From the sequence record MK327941.1: a stretch of 64,000 bases of DNA; one strand, 5' to 3'. This DNA is from Escherichia phage vB_EcoM_G37-3. Below, in pieces: positions 680 to 42,937 of this stretch (position 1 is its first letter; every line of letters starts with the position of its first letter). The notes below the pieces were generated by a model. It was not told where the DNA came from. It did no database searches and saw only the letters and a list, made by a program, of their open reading frames with translations. A program made the translations under genes and the position numbers.

Positions 680-1180
680 TTAACCGATTTTATCAAGTTC
701 GTTTAATGCTTTCTCTGCTTCCTGTATAGCTTGCACTCTTTCCGGCATTTTGTCAAGAAAATCTTTCAACTCTTCAAAACTGGAGATATGACGCAAGGCA
801 TTAGCACCGATAGCCGCATGTGATTTGCATTCAAAGCGGATTTTATAATTATCCATAGCCAATTTGAGAAGGTCTATTAGATCATATTCATGACCAGGCA
901 ATAAAACTTCTTTGAAGCACGCTCGGTCGCCATCGGAAAACCATATATTATCACCAACATCGATAGAACTAATATAATCCCCTTCGTGATTATAGATTGA
1001 ACGTACATTACCCCAACGGTCTACCGTAGCGACAGTAAATGGTTTATCTAGATATGTAAACACACCATCAATATTAGGTTTTTGTTCGTAACGCCAACAA
1101 TCACGCAAAATGCGCTTTTCGTCCTCACCAACCAACTTATATGTCTTCCCTTCTTCCCATTTCATAATATCATCTCTCAT
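680..1180 (-). CDS. Hypothetical protein, KTYK/FFREV paralog family
   Basis: 166-aa ORF starting MKWEEGKTYKL; shares N-terminal and DR-x-FKEV motifs with neighbouring ORFs. Confidence 0.55.
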   Translation of the reverse strand: MRDDIMKWEEGKTYKLVGEDEKRILRDCWRYEQKPNIDGVFTYLDKPFTVATVDRWGNVRSIYNHEGDYISSIDVGDNIWFSDGDRACFKEVLLPGHEYDLIDLLKLAMDNYKIRFECKSHAAIGANALRHISSFEELKDFLDKMPERVQAIQEAEKALNELDKIG

Positions 1181-1704
1181 TTTTGATACGTGATTCTAAT
1201 TGGATCATACGGTCGCGCGTTTGCTTGTATTCTCGAATAGCACCGATCCGGCTAGGCATACCATCAAGCACGCTCTTAATCCCTTCTATGGTAGTGATTT
1301 TAGCAATGCTATTATGTAACCCCATCTTATCGATCAACTGAATGTCGTAGGCTTCCATAAGCAGACCCAGACGTTCTAAAGTTAGGTCTTCTTTTTTCTT
1401 CCGATTCTGGAATCTTAGGTTCAATAGTAACTTCGGTAAAGAAACGGCGCTCACCTGACCAAAACCACACACCGGAACAACCAATAGGGGATTCTTTTAG
1501 CGTCATAGAGTCGTAACCACTGCCGATAATAGTAATTTCTCTAACATCACCATCATCGTCAATGTCTTCTACCATAAAAGGGCGACCAGCCAACAAGTCA
1601 ACAATACATCTGTTAATAGACGACGAAAATTTAGTCAGTTCGGCTTTCGACGCTTCGCATTCAATCTTGTAAGTTTTACCAACTTCCCATTCCATAATAA
1701 TCAC
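1170..1704 (-). pseudogene. Frameshifted member of KTYK/FFREV paralog family (two overlapping ORFs 1327-1704 and 1170-1484)
   Basis: N-terminal part MEWEVGKTYKI in one frame, paralog-like C-terminal part (DGMPSRIGAIREYK) in another; frames switch at homopolymer run 1392-1397. Confidence 0.45.
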
Positions 1705-21327: not shown

Positions 21328-21921
21328 TTAAACGTATTCAGCGACAACATTGTGTTTAAAATTACCACTTCTTTTTGGATTTGGATTTTTCAATCGACTA
21401 TGTATTAAATTTTTGTTATATCCGGTTGCTTTAGACGCTTCTCCAATACTTTGATAAACAACACCATCAACACGAATCGGACGAGACTTATTAAACAGTT
21501 TATTCAATCCGGTATCATATGCATGGTTTTGGTTTTCTTGTCTTGTTGCGATCTCAAGATTCCAAACACAATTACAAGATTTTACCCCACTTTTATGATT
21601 AATTTCAAGCCCTTCACAATCACCTATAAAGTGTTCAGCGACTAGTCTATGAATATAGCGATATTTCTTAGTTTCCCCGTCATGCAAGCATACATTATAA
21701 TAACCATCACCAGCGCGTTTAGGTCGGAGTAGTTTACCTTTAACACGTTTTATAGTAGGGAACTCACCAAATTGATTTCGCTGGATAAAAGGAATCTCTC
21801 GGTCAAGTGAACGGATTCGACCATAGTTAGATACTTGATAAAACCCCCCATAGCCCTTAATCTGCTTCCATATCTCGGGGATTTCAACACCATCAATAAC
21901 AACAAGTTTAAGTTCTTCCAT
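21328..21921 (-). CDS. HNH homing endonuclease (Mob-like)
   Basis: YQVSNYGRIRS (NUMOD4-like) and HRLVAEHFIGDCEGLEINHKSGVKSCNCVWNLE (HNH) motifs. Confidence 0.75.
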   Translation of the reverse strand: MEELKLVVIDGVEIPEIWKQIKGYGGFYQVSNYGRIRSLDREIPFIQRNQFGEFPTIKRVKGKLLRPKRAGDGYYNVCLHDGETKKYRYIHRLVAEHFIGDCEGLEINHKSGVKSCNCVWNLEIATRQENQNHAYDTGLNKLFNKSRPIRVDGVVYQSIGEASKATGYNKNLIHSRLKNPNPKRSGNFKHNVVAEYV

Positions 21922-21933
21922 ATATCACCTCAT

Positions 21934-31600: not shown

Positions 31601-32743
31601 TTAACTATTGATCATATCAATGACGTTTTGTAGCTCTGATATGGATAGCGTTTCTGTATATCCATCGGGCATATCTTCTTTACTAACATAGAAACCTTTA
31701 TACTTTTTCTTTATTGCACATTCCATAGAAAGAGCATCATCACCGTTATCGTATTTTTTATAAAATGTCAACTCATGACGAAATATAGATTTTGAAGATT
31801 GGTTTTGTATTCTTTTTATTAATCTGTTGTTGGTTATACCAAATTTTATAGCAACCGCAACATCTTCTTTGTATAAAGTTTGTACATAAATGTATGCAGG
31901 TTTATTCCTCTTAAATCCATGATTGCTACACATAGGGCAACCGCTATTTTTTGATACGTAGTCTCCTAAGTTTGGCGTAAATTCATGTCCGCTACTACAA
32001 CGCATTACCAATTTTGTTTTTAGCATTCCTCTATACTCACCGCCAACAAAATCAACAAATGTATCACCTTTATCAATCGCCTTATCTGTTATTTCCTTTA
32101 CTACTTGCTCAGTTGACTTCTTGTTTTTACCTGAACATAGTTTACATCTAGATCCATTAACTAAAAACGAGTGACCGGATGCAGTATATTCATGTCCATT
32201 AGGGCATTTAACTAAGATATTTCTTTCATAAAAATCTTTATAATCAGACACATAGTCAATGACTTCGTGGTCTTTTTGGTTATTCCTCATCTCTGTTAGC
32301 AACTCTTCGCTATTCCAGCGTTTACCCTTAACGCAGAGACAACCATGACCTTGATAAAGATATATAAATTTCTTAGTAAAGTTTTTGTTGCAATCAGGAC
32401 AATGCATTAGTAATTCTGTCATTTGACCTGTATATCCTTTAGGAATATCGATCAATGTGTATTTTCCGCATATTGTCTTTAATGCATCATCTATTCTTTC
32501 TTTGGTCCAGCGTAAGCGACCAGTGCATTCATGACATTTTACACCCAGTCTAAGAGTATCTAAACTAAATATAGTTGACGTATGTCCTTTATCACATTTT
32601 AACTTAAATCTAGTATCCTTTGCGTTGGTGTATTCTCCGACTAGACCATACCATTCATAACCACATGGGATATGTTCTTTTACCTTCTCTAGATATACAC
32701 CGAACGGTCTAGGAACTGAATTAGGTTTTCTTTCTTTAGTCAT
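31601..32743 (-). CDS. Multi zinc-ribbon protein with C-terminal GIY-YIG-like (T5orf172-type) domain; putative homing-endonuclease-like selfish gene
   Basis: At least six C-x2-C ... GH pairs; C-terminal AYIYVQ...IKFGITNN...GYTETLSIS resembles the T5orf172 motif pattern; inserted between gene 3 and gene 2. Confidence 0.55.
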   Translation of the reverse strand: MTKERKPNSVPRPFGVYLEKVKEHIPCGYEWYGLVGEYTNAKDTRFKLKCDKGHTSTIFSLDTLRLGVKCHECTGRLRWTKERIDDALKTICGKYTLIDIPKGYTGQMTELLMHCPDCNKNFTKKFIYLYQGHGCLCVKGKRWNSEELLTEMRNNQKDHEVIDYVSDYKDFYERNILVKCPNGHEYTASGHSFLVNGSRCKLCSGKNKKSTEQVVKEITDKAIDKGDTFVDFVGGEYRGMLKTKLVMRCSSGHEFTPNLGDYVSKNSGCPMCSNHGFKRNKPAYIYVQTLYKEDVAVAIKFGITNNRLIKRIQNQSSKSIFRHELTFYKKYDNGDDALSMECAIKKKYKGFYVSKEDMPDGYTETLSISELQNVIDMINS

Positions 32744-32761
32744 ATTTTTATATCCTGTAAA

Positions 32762-32785
32762 TTAAAGCGCCGTCACCAGCGGCGC
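32762..32785. other. Hairpin between gene 2 and inserted gene
   Basis: Inverted repeat AGCGCCG-TCACCAG-CGGCGCT. Confidence 0.4.
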
Positions 32786-32799
32786 TATTTTTATAATCA

Positions 32800-33621
32800 T
32801 TAAAACAATTTCCACACCTTACGAGCATCATATTTCTTGTCTTTGCTCATAAACTGGTAGGTCGGAAGATACACAACCGTGCTCCAATCTTTTGGTGCGA
32901 TCTCAATCAGTTTTGTTTGGATGTGTCCAGGCAAATATGCTTTGATCATGTGGTCTGCGCCTCTCATACCTTTAACATCACTCCATTTAATTTTTAAACG
33001 AGTTTTATTACTAAGAGTAGGTGTACTCGCGTATTGTCGCAACAACGCTTCTAAGAACTGCTGGCGAGCTTTAGGTGGCGCATAGTGCAAGTTCAAACCT
33101 AGCATAATCTCGTTTCCCGCTTTAGATGTACCAAATCCTAGACAGATAATCAAGGGGTATCGGTCAAAGAATGGCAAAGAATCCCGATATTTTGGGTTAT
33201 ACGCATAAGTATAGATCCGTCCCACTTGTGGTTTTACTACCTGATGACCTTTTACACCATCCTTGATGGTCTTCATAAACCACTCCTGTGATTTTTCTTT
33301 AGGACGACTCTTTGATACAGCACGCATAGACGCACGAAAATCATTAATCATCATCATTGCGCGTTGCTGCTTATTGAGACCCTTTGCGCCTTTCCCTTTT
33401 AGTTTTTCAACTTCTATTGCTGTTTTAATTTCGCTGGCATAACGAGACATACTTTTAGTGAAAGTCGCATAGGCTATTCCCTTAGAATCTGCAAATGCTT
33501 TAGCTGTCATTCCTTTGGCTTTTGCTTTCGCAAATTCTACACCCAATTCGACCCACTGTTTAGACTTTCGTTTTTTGGGAGACGGCTTTTCGTCTTCTGT
33601 GATTATTTCAAATACGCTCAT
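32800..33621 (-). CDS. 2: DNA end protector protein gp2
   Basis: 273-aa basic protein, syntenic with T4 gp2 (between genes 3 and 4). Confidence 0.7.
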   Translation of the reverse strand: MSVFEIITEDEKPSPKKRKSKQWVELGVEFAKAKAKGMTAKAFADSKGIAYATFTKSMSRYASEIKTAIEVEKLKGKGAKGLNKQQRAMMMINDFRASMRAVSKSRPKEKSQEWFMKTIKDGVKGHQVVKPQVGRIYTYAYNPKYRDSLPFFDRYPLIICLGFGTSKAGNEIMLGLNLHYAPPKARQQFLEALLRQYASTPTLSNKTRLKIKWSDVKGMRGADHMIKAYLPGHIQTKLIEIAPKDWSTVVYLPTYQFMSKDKKYDARKVWKLF

Positions 33622-33632
33622 AATATTATCCT

Positions 33633-34106
33633 CTATTTGTTAAGCCCTTTAAAGCCAAACACTTTCTTTAATGCATGTTCGGTGATGATCTTAAACTCCA
33701 TGTTATGCTTTTGGCATAATTTCACGGCAGCTAACCATTTTTCAGTATTTTTTGTGTATGTCCATACTTCATGCATATATCGTTGCTTTGTCTTCGCGGT
33801 CATTCTTTTTGGCTTTTCCGGTGGCCTTGTCTCTTTAGCTGGTTTAACTTCCCATAAATGCTCCTTGCCATCATCAAACTTAACGTAAAAATCCATAAAG
33901 TATCTGTGTCTTTTCCCGTCTGTTGATGACTCATAAGGAATTACTACGGTCTCAGATCCCCATTTTGAAACTCTAGGATTGCGGTCTAGCCACTGCATGA
34001 TCCATCTTTCCCAGCTTGAACGGTATGTGATCTTACGTATATCCCCTTTATACTTTTCCTTATTCTCAGGAACATACTTGCCCTTATAAGTGTTAGATCC
34101 TCCCAT
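33633..34106 (-). CDS. 4: Head completion protein gp4
   Basis: Aligns with T4 gp4 (GKYVP, YRSSWERW, VVIPY, DGKRHRYFMDFY, FKIITEH). Confidence 0.8.
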   Translation of the reverse strand: MGGSNTYKGKYVPENKEKYKGDIRKITYRSSWERWIMQWLDRNPRVSKWGSETVVIPYESSTDGKRHRYFMDFYVKFDDGKEHLWEVKPAKETRPPEKPKRMTAKTKQRYMHEVWTYTKNTEKWLAAVKLCQKHNMEFKIITEHALKKVFGFKGLNK

Positions 34107-36535: not shown

Positions 36536-37105
36536 ATGGTTGAAATTCTTCCGATGAGTTCAAAATTGGAGGATATCAGCGAGCGAGAAATCTTTGAGGT
36601 GGTGTTCTCTTATAAAGCAACGCCACCGGATGCAAATACCACATACACGATTAAAGAGTTTAAGATCAGCGAGTATCGCCCTAATAAGGGCGTTACCGTT
36701 GAAGAAACTAAAATATCTGGTGAGTATCGGGATAGTTTTTCGCTTGGCGCGGATTCTCTTAAATATATAACGAAAGATAGAATTAAAAAATCTGCCGGAA
36801 GTTTTGATGATTTACCAGATCCAACTACCGCAGATCTATATTATTTTAACGCTCCTACACGTCTACAGGAGGTTTATACTTATAAAGTAACCCTAACCTA
36901 TATCCAATCTGTTTCAGAGTCTTCTGGTGGTTCTGGTGAAGGAAATAGTGGTGGTTCCAGTAGCCGAGAGGGTGCTGGTGAAACTAATCCGCCTCCGGTA
37001 GTAACCGAGCACACAATAGAGAAAGTTTATACTCAAACCGTTTTTGGAAATTGGGATGTGTGGAGTAAACAGTTAAGAGATTATGTTAGAAGAAGTGAGG
37101 GATAA
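36536..37105 (+). CDS. Hypothetical protein (gene 5.1 position)
   Basis: 189-aa ORF with Gly/Ser-rich linker; positional analog of T4 5.1. Confidence 0.45.
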   Translation: MVEILPMSSKLEDISEREIFEVVFSYKATPPDANTTYTIKEFKISEYRPNKGVTVEETKISGEYRDSFSLGADSLKYITKDRIKKSAGSFDDLPDPTTADLYYFNAPTRLQEVYTYKVTLTYIQSVSESSGGSGEGNSGGSSSREGAGETNPPPVVTEHTIEKVYTQTVFGNWDVWSKQLRDYVRRSEG

Positions 37106-37106
37106 T

Positions 37107-37646
37107 ATGATTGAAGTAATTCATTACACCAAAGAAGATGAAATTTTATATAATAGACTACATGAACTATTTTATGAAGTTGACGGAAAGGTTTATAGAA
37201 GGTTCTCTCGTGGACGTTCTAAAGCCGGAAGTCTAGTTGGTGGATTGAAGATAAATCCATGTGGATATAGATATTGGAGACTTGCTGTTGATGGTAAAGA
37301 GTTTCAGAGGTCTCATGTTGTTTATCATATGCATCACGGACACACTCCAAAAAAACCACTACAAATAGATCATATTAACACAAACTCCCTTGACGACCGA
37401 GTTAGCAATTTAAGACCAGTAACAGTTACTCAACAAATGTACAACCAAAATAAACAATCCGATTGCACATCTTCATATATTGGTGTTAATTGGAATAAAA
37501 ATTCCAAAAAATGGGAAGCTAGAATTAGAGCTAATGGAAAACGAATCCGTTTAGGTCTATTTGATAATGAAATTGACGCTGCGATTGCCTATAACACCGC
37601 TGCATTATCTAGAGATTCAAAAGTTAACAAATTAAACGATGTATGA
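37107..37646 (+). CDS. HNH homing endonuclease with AP2-like DNA-binding domain
   Basis: HVVYHMHHGHTPKKPLQIDHINTNSLDDRVSNLR (HNH) and YIGVNWNKNSKKWEARIRANGKRIRLGLF (AP2-like); ATG at 37107 with RBS GAGGGA. Confidence 0.75.
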   Translation: MIEVIHYTKEDEILYNRLHELFYEVDGKVYRRFSRGRSKAGSLVGGLKINPCGYRYWRLAVDGKEFQRSHVVYHMHHGHTPKKPLQIDHINTNSLDDRVSNLRPVTVTQQMYNQNKQSDCTSSYIGVNWNKNSKKWEARIRANGKRIRLGLFDNEIDAAIAYNTAALSRDSKVNKLNDV

Positions 37647-37661
37647 GGATGGGGGTGTTTA

Positions 37662-37955
37662 ATGGCTGGATTATCCTACGATAAAGCTAAAACTACAGGG
37701 CACGGAAACTACCCACCTACTGTAATTAATGCAACTCAATCGAAGGTATTTGTTGAGGGTATCCCTGTATTAGTAGAAGGAGACCCAATTACACCACACA
37801 CAAAAACAACAAAGCCTTATGATACACACGGGGGAACTACGGTCGCCAGTACCCCGAAAGTCTTTGTTACCGGAAAGAAAGCAATTCAAATGGCAGATCG
37901 TATTAGCTGTGGCGATACCGTCGCTATGGCATCACCGAAGGTTTATATCAAATGA
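37662..37955 (+). CDS. 5.4: PAAR-repeat spike tip protein gp5.4
   Basis: 97-aa protein directly upstream of gene 6, as T4 gp5.4. Confidence 0.75.
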
Positions 37956-39601
37956 CAAAGCAAAAGATTACACAAATTCCTGATATTTTTAATGCTGCTA
38001 CATTCGATGAAATTAAAAGCGCATTAACAGACTGGATGAGAAACCAGGAAGAATTTAAAGATTTTGATTTTAATGGTGCTGGTATTAACGTATTGATGGA
38101 CTTGCTCGCATATAATACCCTTTATATTCAGCAATTCGCCAACGCCGCGCTATATGAATCTTTTATCAGAACGGCAATTAAGCGTAGTTCAGTTGTTCAA
38201 GCCGCGCAAGATTTAGGATATTTGCCAGCAAGTAAAACTAGTGCATCAACTACAATTATGTTGCATGTATCACATCCACGAAATCCGGCAAGTATTCGAA
38301 TCCCACGAGGAACTAAATTTATTGCAAGTGTGGACCGCCAGACGTCTTATCCGTTTGTTACTACAGAAGACGTTGTGAGCGTTTTAGGTTCAAATGGTTT
38401 ATATACTCCTATGCTTAAAGTCGCACAAGGTCGTATTGTTCGTACAGAAATGTTATTTGATCCGAAGAAACAAATTCTGATCCGCGATCCTGATATTGAC
38501 CGCGCTCAGGTTAAATTGTGGGTGGATGGGGCTGAATGGAAAGACTGGACGCGAGAAAGTATTGTTAATGCAACTGGCGCCAGTAATATTTTCTATATGC
38601 GTGAAACCGTAGACGGTCATACAGAAATCTTCTTTGGTGAAGGTGAATCAACTTTATCTGCTGCTGGCGGTGCACTGGAAGCAAATTATATTGGTGGACT
38701 TAAGCCGTCAACTGGTGCTAATATTGTTATTGAATATATTAGCACTAAAGGCGCGGAAGCAAACGGATCTGTCAATTTCACATACGCGGATACCCTTGCA
38801 TCTATCTCTATTGTTAAAATTATTGAGAATCCGACAAATGATCGTGATTATGTCGGTGCAGATGGTGGTGGTGATCCTGAATCAATCGAACGTATTCGTG
38901 AACTTGCTCCGGTAATGCGTGAATCTCAGCGTCGTTGTGTTACTGCTTCCGACTATGAGGCTTTTGTATCTAGCCGTTTTGGTAGTATTGTTCAGGCGGT
39001 ACAATGTTTCACCGATCGAGAAAAACCAGGTTATGCTTTTGTTGCTGTTAAGCCTAAATCTGGTTTGCGATTGACAACTATTCAAAAAGAAGATATGCGG
39101 GATTATCTGGCAAAATATAACCTTGCCCCTATCACACCGAGCATCATTGACCCTAACTATCTGTATATTAAACAGAATATTAAAGTTTCCTATTCAATCA
39201 ATGACTTATCAGAATCAGAGCAGTGGTTGCGCGGTGCGGTTATTGATCAGATTGATGCATATTATACCGACGAAGTGGAAATTTTTAACCAGACCTTTAG
39301 TAAGTCTAAAATGCTTGCGCGTATTGACAAAGCTGATGTATCTGTGATAGGTTCTAGTGCAGAAATAGAGATGGTTCGAGAGATCGACAACTTCTATAAA
39401 GCACCTATGGCGGGAATCAAGTTTTTAAACCAGTATAAGAGCGGAATCAAGTCTAGTTCGTTCAACTTCGAAAAGGACGGTAAACAATACCCGATCCATT
39501 ATGTAAGTACAGAAATGAACAAAGAATCCGGTTTAGCTAAATTGCTGGTTGGACCTTTCCCTGTTGATTCTACAATCGCTTTACCGCACTTCCGGCACTG
39601 A
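37952..39601 (+). CDS. 6: Baseplate wedge protein gp6, N-terminal frame (interrupted by frameshift)
   Basis: 549-aa ORF at gene 6 position; terminates prematurely at 39599-39601. Confidence 0.75.
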
Positions 39602-39854
39602 TTTTGATAAAGAGGTTATTGACGGTGCGGACCTATACTTTGAGGTTGGAGAGGTTCAGCATTATGACGACCTTATTTCATGGGATCTGGGTAAACTGAA
39701 TATCAATAGCGATCGCTTTACTGGTTCATATATTGAGTTGACAGCTAAACCGATTGCTGATAACATCTTTACTAAAGACGGTTCTTTGATCGTGTTTGAA
39801 AACGATCTCCGTCCTCAGTACACAACTATTAGTCTGGAGGCAATTGCTCAATGA
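39537..39854 (+). CDS. 6: gp6 C-terminal segment in +1 frame (ends with ATGA overlap onto gene 7)
   Basis: Open frame from 39537; stop TGA overlaps gene 7 ATG at 39851. Confidence 0.55.
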   Translation, partial: LNCWLDLSLLILQSLYRTSGTDFDKEVIDGADLYFEVGEVQHYDDLISWDLGKLNINSDRFTGSYIELTAKPIADNIFTKDGSLIVFENDLRPQYTTISLEAIAQ

Positions 39855-42800
39855 TTAAAGCGCCTAGTGTAACTAGCTTGACAATAGAAAAATTGTCTGC
39901 TAATCAGGCGTATATCACATGGGATGACGTAGGCGAAAACTTCTTTTATTTTGTGGAGTTAGCCGAAACCAGAACACGAGACGGGGAGATCATCCCCGTC
40001 GATGAGTTAAGCTGGGTAAACCTGGGATATACTGCCGAACAAAACTGGTTTGAGGATAAAAACCTTTTTCCAGAATATTATTACAAGTTTCGTGTAGCAG
40101 TAGCCGCAGAAGGATTTGAACAAAGTAAATGGGTTGAGACAGAAGAGTTTCAGACATTTAAAACAAACGCATATAATTTTTCTATGATGCGAGAGTTCAA
40201 CCTTGCAAACGAGTTTATAAAGGAAAAATTTACATACGATAATCGAGAGTATGTCAAGTTTAATACCGACCTTATTCAAGCATCATTGATGAAGGAAGAT
40301 TTTGTCTTTAGTCCTGAATATGCAAACATGACAAATATCTCAAACTACATTGTAGTTGATGAGAACTTTCATGAAATACAGGACCACATAGAAAAAGTTT
40401 GTACTGATATAAACCACACTATGTTAGCGGAAATGAACGGTGTTTTGTACCTTTTCGAACGGTTCCAGCCGATCGTGAAAGTGTCAAATGATAAAGGCCA
40501 ATCATGGAAGGCATACAAGGCTTTTAATGACCGTGTAGGCAATCCGGTTTCCCGTACATGCGTTTATCAGTCTAAAACCACTACTTACGTTTTAGGATAT
40601 GACCGAATCTTTTACGGACGACAAGCGAGCGATACTCGATGGAGCGCGGACGATGTTCGATTTAGTGATGATACGATCACTTTTGCAAAGGTCGGTGACG
40701 AAAACGATTTAGGCTTTGACGTTGAGGTCTTTGGTGTATTTTCCAGATTAACAGGTGATACCACAAAATACGCCGAAGCTATGGCGTGTAGTGATGACTA
40801 TTTGTGGGTTGGTGCTAAAGATGTTATTCGCCGGATTCGTCTTAAGAATACTCCTGTTGATACCGTACAGGGTTCGCCTACGTTTGGAGAAAAAATATTC
40901 GATCCTGATGTTATCCGAGTAACAGGAAATGATAAAGCTGTCATTCAGAAAATGGATGTGGTCGACGGTAAATTGCTTGTATTTGTTACGGGTGAAGTTA
41001 AACAGCGTTATCAAGATCCAACTAAACCAGAAAACGTTGTTCCGTCAGATGATGCGGGTGTATACTTAATAGGGAGTGATGGTCTGTCTTTTCAGAGAGT
41101 ATTTGGCAACACTCCGCAGGAAAGGGAATATATTCAGCATGGGTTCAGTAATATGTCAACCAATGGTGATGAGGTGTTCATAAGCCATTATAATCATCAC
41201 TTCGAAAGCATTTTACCTGATCCAGAAACTGCCGAGAAATATGAATTGGGAGAAGCTGTAAAATATTCTCATGAGCCAACTTATCTAACTGATAAGAAAA
41301 TACATCAAACTACTTTCAGAGCAAGTTATGATGATTTGCGTATTTGGGAGTTAGGACCGCAAGCGTATTATAATGAGGCCGATTATACATGGATGCGTCG
41401 AAACGGTGTCCGTGTGTGGATCACAAATGATAATCGCCCGTTGGTTGTTTATCCAGAGGTTATCTATACTCAAGAAGTTGATACATCTGGCATTCTTGAC
41501 CAAAATAGGATCAACCGAGAAGTTTATGATAAAGGGACCGTGACCTGTTATCTTAACAATGTTAAATTTGAAGGATTCAAACAATATGCATCCGGTGTAA
41601 TGTTCCATAAAAACACAGGAGAGATCATAGGATTCTATCAATTTAATTATCGTGTTCGTGATCAGGTTGGTGTATATTGGAAACCTACAAATGTAGCATT
41701 TGTTGCTGAATTGCAAAATCAGGTTCGAGAGGTTCCCTGGGTTCCGGTTCACTACGATCGAGAGCAAGATCCAGATTTGCGGCCTTTACTGAATAAGATG
41801 ACCCCTGATAGCTTTTTACTTGAGAACGAAAATTTCAGAAAATTCTCTGAATATTATCTGCAATTCTTAAGCGATGGTTCAGGAACATATTATAATAAAC
41901 TAAAAAATCTGATTAAAAACAAATATCCACGCGAGAAAGATGCATATGAGTATCTTTGGTCAGAGATGAACAAACGAAACATCTATGCAGATAAAAACAA
42001 GCGAGATGCGGTAGTAAGATTCTTTGAATCCCGCAAATCAGATTTTTATTCCACTAAGGGCGTGGAGGCTTCTTATAAGTTCTTGTTTAAGTTACTTTAT
42101 AATGAAGATGTGGAAATTGAGGTTGAATCACAAGCCGGACTAGAGTATGATATTGTTGTTAGTTCAACGAACATTGACGAGGATATCGTAGGTCGCACGA
42201 TTTATACTCCAACCGGACGGGCTAACGTGACGTATCTTGAAAGGGAATATGAAGGTGGTCGCCTACGCTGGCGAGTAACCATTCATAACCTGATCGGGCG
42301 GTTCGAAGAAGGTCAAGTGATCAAATCAGAGAAAACAGCGTTTGAAGGGATGATCCTTGTTGGTGTACGTGGTAAAGAGTTGTTGAGTAGTTCAATCGAC
42401 TATATCAACCGCTCACGAAGCCAATACACCATGAAGATTAAAAGTGCATTGCCAGTTTCGCGCTATGCAAATGATGTAATGCGATTCGTTCATCCTGTCG
42501 GCTTTGGGTTTATCGGTGTTACCCTGCTTACGATGTTCATTAACAGCGGGTTGAGCATGAAGCACACCGAGACGATAATTCAATCTCTGAAAAATTATAA
42601 GTTTGACAGCGGATTGCCTAGCGTGTATCCTGATCGGGTGGCAGACCTTGACGTTGACGGAAACATTAAGAAAGACCCGCTTACCGGAAAAGCATTATAT
42701 TTGACTTCACCTTTAATCGGTGATGAATTTCCGGTTCCTCCTGAATATGATCAGGAGAACAGCGAATTGTTCCACGGACTTAAAGCAAGCGAACGAAGAT

Positions 42801-42937
42801 TTGCAATGAGTCCACTGTTTGACCAGTCGGCGGTAACATTCTCTATGTTCCGTGAGCTTGTGGATAAACGGTTGAAGGATAATATAGGGAATCCACGCGA
42901 TCCGAAGAATCCGACACAGAGGAAAATTAATGGCTAA
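39851..42937 (+). CDS. 7: Baseplate wedge protein gp7
   Basis: 1028 aa, collinear with T4 gp7 (IKAPSVTSL, YLFERFQPIVKVSNDKGQSWKA, NPRDPKNPTQ). Confidence 0.92.
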   Translation: MIKAPSVTSLTIEKLSANQAYITWDDVGENFFYFVELAETRTRDGEIIPVDELSWVNLGYTAEQNWFEDKNLFPEYYYKFRVAVAAEGFEQSKWVETEEFQTFKTNAYNFSMMREFNLANEFIKEKFTYDNREYVKFNTDLIQASLMKEDFVFSPEYANMTNISNYIVVDENFHEIQDHIEKVCTDINHTMLAEMNGVLYLFERFQPIVKVSNDKGQSWKAYKAFNDRVGNPVSRTCVYQSKTTTYVLGYDRIFYGRQASDTRWSADDVRFSDDTITFAKVGDENDLGFDVEVFGVFSRLTGDTTKYAEAMACSDDYLWVGAKDVIRRIRLKNTPVDTVQGSPTFGEKIFDPDVIRVTGNDKAVIQKMDVVDGKLLVFVTGEVKQRYQDPTKPENVVPSDDAGVYLIGSDGLSFQRVFGNTPQEREYIQHGFSNMSTNGDEVFISHYNHHFESILPDPETAEKYELGEAVKYSHEPTYLTDKKIHQTTFRASYDDLRIWELGPQAYYNEADYTWMRRNGVRVWITNDNRPLVVYPEVIYTQEVDTSGILDQNRINREVYDKGTVTCYLNNVKFEGFKQYASGVMFHKNTGEIIGFYQFNYRVRDQVGVYWKPTNVAFVAELQNQVREVPWVPVHYDREQDPDLRPLLNKMTPDSFLLENENFRKFSEYYLQFLSDGSGTYYNKLKNLIKNKYPREKDAYEYLWSEMNKRNIYADKNKRDAVVRFFESRKSDFYSTKGVEASYKFLFKLLYNEDVEIEVESQAGLEYDIVVSSTNIDEDIVGRTIYTPTGRANVTYLEREYEGGRLRWRVTIHNLIGRFEEGQVIKSEKTAFEGMILVGVRGKELLSSSIDYINRSRSQYTMKIKSALPVSRYANDVMRFVHPVGFGFIGVTLLTMFINSGLSMKHTETIIQSLKNYKFDSGLPSVYPDRVADLDVDGNIKKDPLTGKALYLTSPLIGDEFPVPPEYDQENSELFHGLKASERRFAMSPLFDQSAVTFSMFRELVDKRLKDNIGNPRDPKNPTQRKING

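Follow-up and report, generated by a model that had tools for sequence, protein, structure and literature searches.

The baseplate wedge protein gp6 of phage T4 is the closest described counterpart of the protein encoded at the locus studied here. In T4, the baseplate is held together by a ring whose inter-wedge dimers are formed by the C-terminal half of gp6; the wedge is assembled in a strict order, and gp6 is insoluble without gp8 (PMC3004832). In phage XM1, domain III of gp16 was described as the minimal inter-wedge dimerisation domain, and its counterpart in T4 gp6 comprises residues 340-489 (PMC10457771). A gene 6 with an interrupted reading frame can be compared with two further systems. 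One is the +1 frameshift of E. coli prfB, which takes place at CUU UGA C and is accompanied by an upstream Shine-Dalgarno-like element. The other is the frameshift-split coding sequence (CDS) of deposited phage genomes, where one small indel, usually a 1-nt homopolymer error, divides a gene that is intact in close relatives.

We analyzed a stretch of 64,000 nucleotides (hereafter, the window, in whose numbering all positions are given) of Escherichia phage vB_EcoM_G37-3, a Krischvirus (RB49-like) with a genome of 167,832 bp sequenced at 456x coverage and deposited as MK327941 (Korf et al. 2019, Viruses 11:454, PMC6563267). G37-3 originated from pig manure and was deposited as DSM 103248; it was propagated and showed normal myovirus morphology with a 110-nm tail (PMC6563267). 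The sequencing platforms in that study were PacBio RSII with HGAP3 or Illumina MiSeq with SPAdes, the choice for G37-3 not being stated (PMC6563267). The closest annotated phage records to the window were those of G5211, which comes from the same study as G37-3, and JSE. As in T4, the genes follow the order 5 - 5.1 - (HNH) - 5.4/PAAR - 6 - 7 - 8, with an ATGA overlap between genes 6 and 7, and the position of gene 6 between gene 5.4 (PAAR) and gene 7 was the same in G5211, RB49, JSE and G2248.

The initial annotation of the window had read gene 6 as one gene interrupted by a frameshift, with an upstream frame of 549 codons that stops at 39599-39601 and the true C-terminus in the other frame. 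Our comparison with related phages supported this core reading and placed the break more exactly. The features of the region are as follows:

37662-37955, PAAR ORF (gene 5.4), adjoining gene 6 upstream
37952..39601, + strand, gene 6, baseplate wedge protein gp6, upstream frame: 546 authentic residues, then F-R-H and TGA (QBO64735.1)
39564..39854, + strand, second GenBank CDS, 96 aa, TTG start, "putative baseplate wedge subunit" (presumably QBO64736.1)
39589..39591, + strand, site of the 2-nt deletion (TA or AT from CAC-TAT-TCC), from the alignment with G5211 and RB49
39591..39854, + strand, authentic gene 6 3ʹ end, residues 548-634 and stop, in the +1 frame (gp6_C-domII match, G5211 identity)
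39836..39840, + strand, gene 7 Shine-Dalgarno sequence GGAGG, 10 nt upstream of the ATG, read from the sequence
39851..42937, + strand, gene 7, baseplate wedge initiator, 1028 aa, intact (QBO64737.1; the same protein as G5211 gp7, QBO66381.1)

The second frame is directly preceded by a TAG codon (39534-39536), is open from 39537 and runs to the TGA at 39852-39854, which overlaps the gene 7 ATG (39851-39853) in the ATGA arrangement. The shift had been expected between 39537 and 39598, and alignment with gene 6 of G5211 and RB49 reduced this interval of 62 nt to the loss of 2 nt at 39589-39591. The relatives read CCG CAC TAT TCC GGC ACT GAT (P H Y S G T D), and G37-3 reads CCG CAC TTC CGG CAC TGA, that is, it is without the two nucleotides TA (or AT) of CCGCAC[TA]TTCCGG. 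The deletion sits in codon 547 (Tyr) of a 634-codon gene, with the result that the final 87 codons lie in the +1 frame. From 39591 on, this frame does not differ by a single nucleotide from the 3ʹ end of G5211 gene 6, and it gives a match to the Pfam family gp6_C-domII; thus it is no chance ORF. The longest homopolymer run in 39537-39598 is 3 nt, in agreement with the initial annotation, which had reported no long run there.

The division of the gene is also visible in the databases. The 549-aa product is an exact match to QBO64735.1, the "putative baseplate wedge subunit" of vB_EcoM_G37-3, and this protein was found in that single NCBI record alone. The depositors of MK327941 had already annotated gene 6 as two CDS of 549 and 96 aa; the first nine codons of the shorter one are out-of-frame filler. 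Gene 7 carries its own GGAGG, so its expression need not depend on translation of, or coupling to, gene 6.

To place the break in the protein, we compared T4 gp6 (PDB 5HX2/5IV5, 3H2T) with the intact sister allele, which corresponds to the window sequence with the 2 nt restored. Residues 7-634 of this allele aligned with residues 15-660 of T4 gp6 (E = 1.1e-237, phmmer against PDB chains). T4 gp6 and the 634-aa product of RB49 gene 6 share the same five Pfam domains, which the two pieces of G37-3 cover together. Unlike in T4 gp6, however, the G37-3 frame is broken at the equivalent of T4 Tyr572, which leaves 546 authentic residues in the upstream product and the remaining 87 in the +1 frame, and the five domains do not occur in one polypeptide of about 627-660 aa in the record as written. 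Gp6-like_1st, Gp6_2nd, Gp6_C-I and Gp6_C-III gave full Pfam matches in the 549-aa product. The fifth domain, gp6_C-domII (residues 485-590), is divided, with profile positions 2-61 of 119 in the upstream frame and 75-118 in the +1 frame. The counterpart of XM1 gp16 domain III, at residues ~330-479 of G37-3 gp6, lies upstream of the break and is kept in the truncated product.

In an AlphaFold model of intact Krischvirus gp6 (overall pLDDT 69, residues 480-600 at 74-92), residue 547 was located in a confidently modelled, ordered loop between strands 528-536 and 562-570. According to this model, the truncation would remove strands 562-570, 575-579 and 595-599, helix 580-583 and the terminal strand 625-632. 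The displaced part is well conserved: the last 44 residues were conserved like the best parts of gp6 (mean column identity 0.79 vs 0.72), a near-invariant block DGSLIVFENDLRP.YT.I lies within the C-terminal part now in the +1 frame, and authentic residues 548-634 include the peptide DGSLIVFENDLRPQYTTISLEAIAQ.

We then asked whether the deletion is found in any relative. All 58 related phage records were 2 nt longer than G37-3 across the site, and in every relative the intact gene 6 is a single gene of 1905 nt. The junction sequence had no exact match in the viral, metagenome and genome contig collections searched, and two IMG/VR contigs that matched the flanks of the junction in a gapped pattern search both keep the extra 2 nt. 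Among the best 120 gp6 homologues (59-99% identity) the proteins were 627-653 aa long and carried all five Pfam domains, the sole exception being a fragment at a contig end; no naturally short or split gp6 was present in this set. The reading of the initial annotation would have been refuted if gp6 of related phages naturally ended at the stop of the upstream frame, and these counts show that it does not. As judged from these sequence comparisons, the deletion is unique to the deposited G37-3 sequence, and it appears to be neither a programmed nor an evolved feature.

The 87-aa C-terminal part, used as a protein query, retrieved four proteins in all (P0031-P0034), and none of them was accepted as an independent C-terminal gene or a natural split of gp6. 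P0031 is the 96-aa CDS of the G37-3 record itself, and P0034 lies on a contig of 745 nt. The other two, whose contigs were long enough for inspection, are assembly artefacts: P0032 is truncated at the edge of its contig, and P0033 comes directly after N positions in a scaffold. The metagenome scaffold ZHAN20-1...scaffold_3195 of ENA (L008 1108-1117) presents a T4-like gene 6 as ORFs of 408 and 81 aa solely as a result of a 10-N scaffold gap, which shows a route by which split gp6 entries reach the protein databases.

The comparison with the sister phage G5211 bears on the age of the event. Apart from the gene 6 deletion, window positions 36780-63350 (26.5 kb of late genes) are 100% identical to G5211, with zero substitutions, and over the longer interval 32810-64000 the deletion is the only indel. 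Since there is no other difference from G5211 in the 26.5 kb, the deletion is either younger than any substitution there or not biological. We also observed that the gene 2 region (32000-34000) carries 148 substitutions relative to G5211, against the full identity of 36780-63350. Such a sharp mosaic boundary suggests a recent recombination between sibling phages of the same study.

Translation of the C-terminal piece, either by recoding or from a start of its own, was considered next. There is no ATG or GTG in the +1 frame before 39792; the candidate starts are TTG codons at 39549 and 39564 and non-canonical CTG and ATT codons, and no Shine-Dalgarno sequence was found upstream of the +1-frame start codons, including the two TTG. 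As read from the sequence, the C-terminal piece thus has no credible independent start and is unlikely to be made separately. The zero-frame codons of 39551-39601 are GGA CCU UUC CCU GUU GAU UCU ACA AUC GCU UUA CCG CAC UUC CGG CAC UGA, and in the overlap there is none whose tRNA re-pairs at +1 (no UUU, CCC, AAA or GGG, and no CUU-U). Neither a Shine-Dalgarno-like (GGAGG-like) stimulator before the in-frame UGA nor an unusual RNA structure was detected: the fold of 39575-39700 had z = -1.09, with 31 of 200 shuffles folding at least as well, and the RNA sequence downstream of the break is also present in the intact relatives. Promoter and terminator patterns were not notable. Usage of CGG in the late genes is low (5.2 per 1000). 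Since the deletion is found in no relative, no dedicated recoding signal could have evolved, and transcriptional slippage is ruled out because the longest homopolymer is 3 nt.

The locus resembles prfB in that a +1 shift would be needed near an in-frame UGA. Unlike prfB-type frameshifting, it has no shifty codon, no stimulator and no conservation, and the site itself derives from a deletion unshared by relatives. The locus also resembles the frameshift-split CDS of deposited phage genomes, in that the gene is intact in close relatives, the difference is one small indel in one record, and the pieces are annotated as adjacent CDS with the same product name. The G37-3 indel differs from the usual 1-nt homopolymer error in being 2 nt long and outside a homopolymer, which is less typical.

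The quality of the record was examined by a search for frame-split conserved genes in five Krischvirus genomes, with 37-66 kb compared in each. Conserved genes split by frame were found only in G37-3, in two cases. Both breaks are 2-nt deletions in which T-N-T became T (T[AT]T and T[CT]T), and neither is present in G5211, JSE, G2248 or RB49. A general artefact of the sequencing pipeline was rejected as an explanation, as conserved genes split by frame were absent from the 50-66 kb compared in G5211 and G2248, two further genomes of the same study. In a PacBio or Illumina consensus at 456x coverage, the loss of 2 nt where the sequence is non-repetitive would be an atypical residual error.

The second break lies in window 1173-1704 (- strand), with the deletion at ~1394 in the context GTCTTCTT[CT]TTTTC. 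A conserved hypothetical gene of 175-178 aa beside nrdG, with the homologues RB49p051, G5211_00053 and EpJSE_00052, is thereby divided into one ORF of 125 aa and another of 104 aa. As the surrounding stretch is locally diverged, the second deletion could be a genuine pseudogene. A further length difference was noted at window ~25482 in a minus-strand gene, where G37-3 has an A8 run and G5211 and RB49 have A6. This run falls ~29 nt into a 69-aa ORF homologous to G5211_00112, the annotated N-terminus of which is shifted or lost in the window.

Taken together, we infer that the break is probably a consensus, assembly or editing error, or the mark of a defective sub-population, and that the real virion carries a normal gp6 of 634 aa. 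Gene 6 would then be the canonical single 634-codon gene minus two bases (TA or AT, 39589-39591); the deletion would be absent from the genomes that form infectious particles, and ordinary full-length gp6 would be present in the virion. Such a non-biological or non-fixed origin is favored because G37-3 is a propagated phage with normal tails, because the break halves a folded domain, because the lost tail is under strong constraint, and because the deletion is the sole difference from G5211 over 26.5 kb. Three observations speak against this reading, namely the error type, which is not a typical one for a consensus at this coverage, the lack of such breaks in G5211 and G2248, and the retained counterpart of the minimal dimerisation domain. 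The first and the last also count in favor of the main competing explanation, which we regard as possible but clearly the less probable: a real and very recent mutation, fixed in the G37-3 stock and tolerated. The baseplate would then be built with a gp6 that ends after residue 546 and F-R-H, either alone or with a separate C-terminal piece of 96-101 aa that completes domain II in trans. A partly functional real truncation is conceivable because the truncated gp6 retains the counterpart of the minimal dimerisation domain; the 549-aa product keeps the helical core, the wing domain, Gp6_C-I and Gp6_C-III, the last two corresponding to the inter-wedge dimerising region in the XM1 minimal baseplate (PMC10457771). 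Polarity on gene 7 would be limited by its own GGAGG, and the second unique 2-nt deletion could reflect a real mutational history of G37-3. However, a real mutation would cut a folded beta-domain in half and discard a C-terminal tail that hardly varies among homologues with ~60% identity; the C-terminal part is lacking in 0 of ~120 homologues and 0/58 relatives. Since T4 gp6 already depends on gp8 for solubility (PMC3004832), a half-domain would probably be harmful. For the C-terminal piece, the only starts are TTG codons that lack a Shine-Dalgarno sequence and lie within an ORF that is itself translated, and the absence of substitutions in the 26.5 kb around the site also weighs against a real mutation. 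The narrower proposition that G37-3 is viable with gene 6 broken in C-terminal domain II, the distal ~87 residues being dispensable or working as a separate polypeptide, we consider unlikely.

The other two readings, programmed frameshifting and a natural split, are effectively excluded. The initial annotation had listed a programmed frameshift among the possible causes, besides a sequencing indel and a real truncation or split, and full-length gp6 could in principle be restored by a +1 (or -2) ribosomal frameshift or by transcriptional slippage within 39537-39598, e.g., at UUC-CGG or CAC-UGA. With a shift anywhere in the 62-nt overlap of the frames, the protein would be close to native (after UUC, for example, the product would read ..LPHF-GTDFDK.. 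in place of the native LPHYSGTDFDK), and the late genes use the Arg codon CGG fairly rarely. Nevertheless, we find recoding very improbable: the arrangement occurs in 0/58 relatives and is accompanied by no split or short homologue, no zero-frame codon of the overlap re-pairs at +1, the stop is not preceded by a Shine-Dalgarno-like element, the fold is unremarkable, and homopolymers of at most 3 nt speak against slippage. As we estimate, background frameshifting of ≤1% could supply the 12 copies of gp6 that each virion needs only at a severe cost in fitness. A natural two-gene layout, in which the G37-3 lineage would encode the N-terminal wedge protein and a small C-terminal protein independently of each other, agrees with the two CDS annotated in GenBank; it is the least probable of all, as every relative has a single 1905-nt gene, the sister G5211 is identical save the 2 nt, the split falls inside a domain, and the second piece has no proper start site.

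The split of gene 6 is an ordinary finding, and its main value is in curation. The 549-aa and 96-aa entries of MK327941 are best merged into a single gene that probably carries a 2-nt error or represents a defective allele, which keeps them from propagating as family members. If the deletion were real and fixed, it would be a natural experiment on how much of the gp6 C-terminus a T4-like baseplate can lose or obtain in trans, and structural biologists working on baseplates would find it moderately interesting. Should G37-3 be viable as written, its baseplate would assemble and be triggered either without the distal part of gp6 that is specific to the T4 type, or with this part supplied as a separate, weakly translated polypeptide.

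Finally, three further ORFs were noticed elsewhere in the window. Between gene 5.1 and gene 5.4 (PAAR), at 37083-37646 (+ strand), there is a homing-endonuclease-like ORF of 187 aa with HNH_3 and AP2 domains, which is present in G5211 and missing at the same position in RB49, JSE and G2248. A 197-aa endonuclease ORF with NUMOD4 and HNH_3 domains and a weak match to the I-TevI DNA-binding domain lies between nrdC.11 and vs.6 (21328-21921, - strand); the stretch 21331-21930 has no counterpart in G5211, and in JSE this place is occupied by a homing endonuclease. Inserted beside gene 2, at 31601-32743 (- strand), an ORF of 380 aa shows CapR homology, a treble-clef zinc finger (DUF4379) and weak T5orf172 matches. 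It does not occur in G5211, where window 31603-32810 is unaligned, and it is present in JSE as EpJSE_00134.
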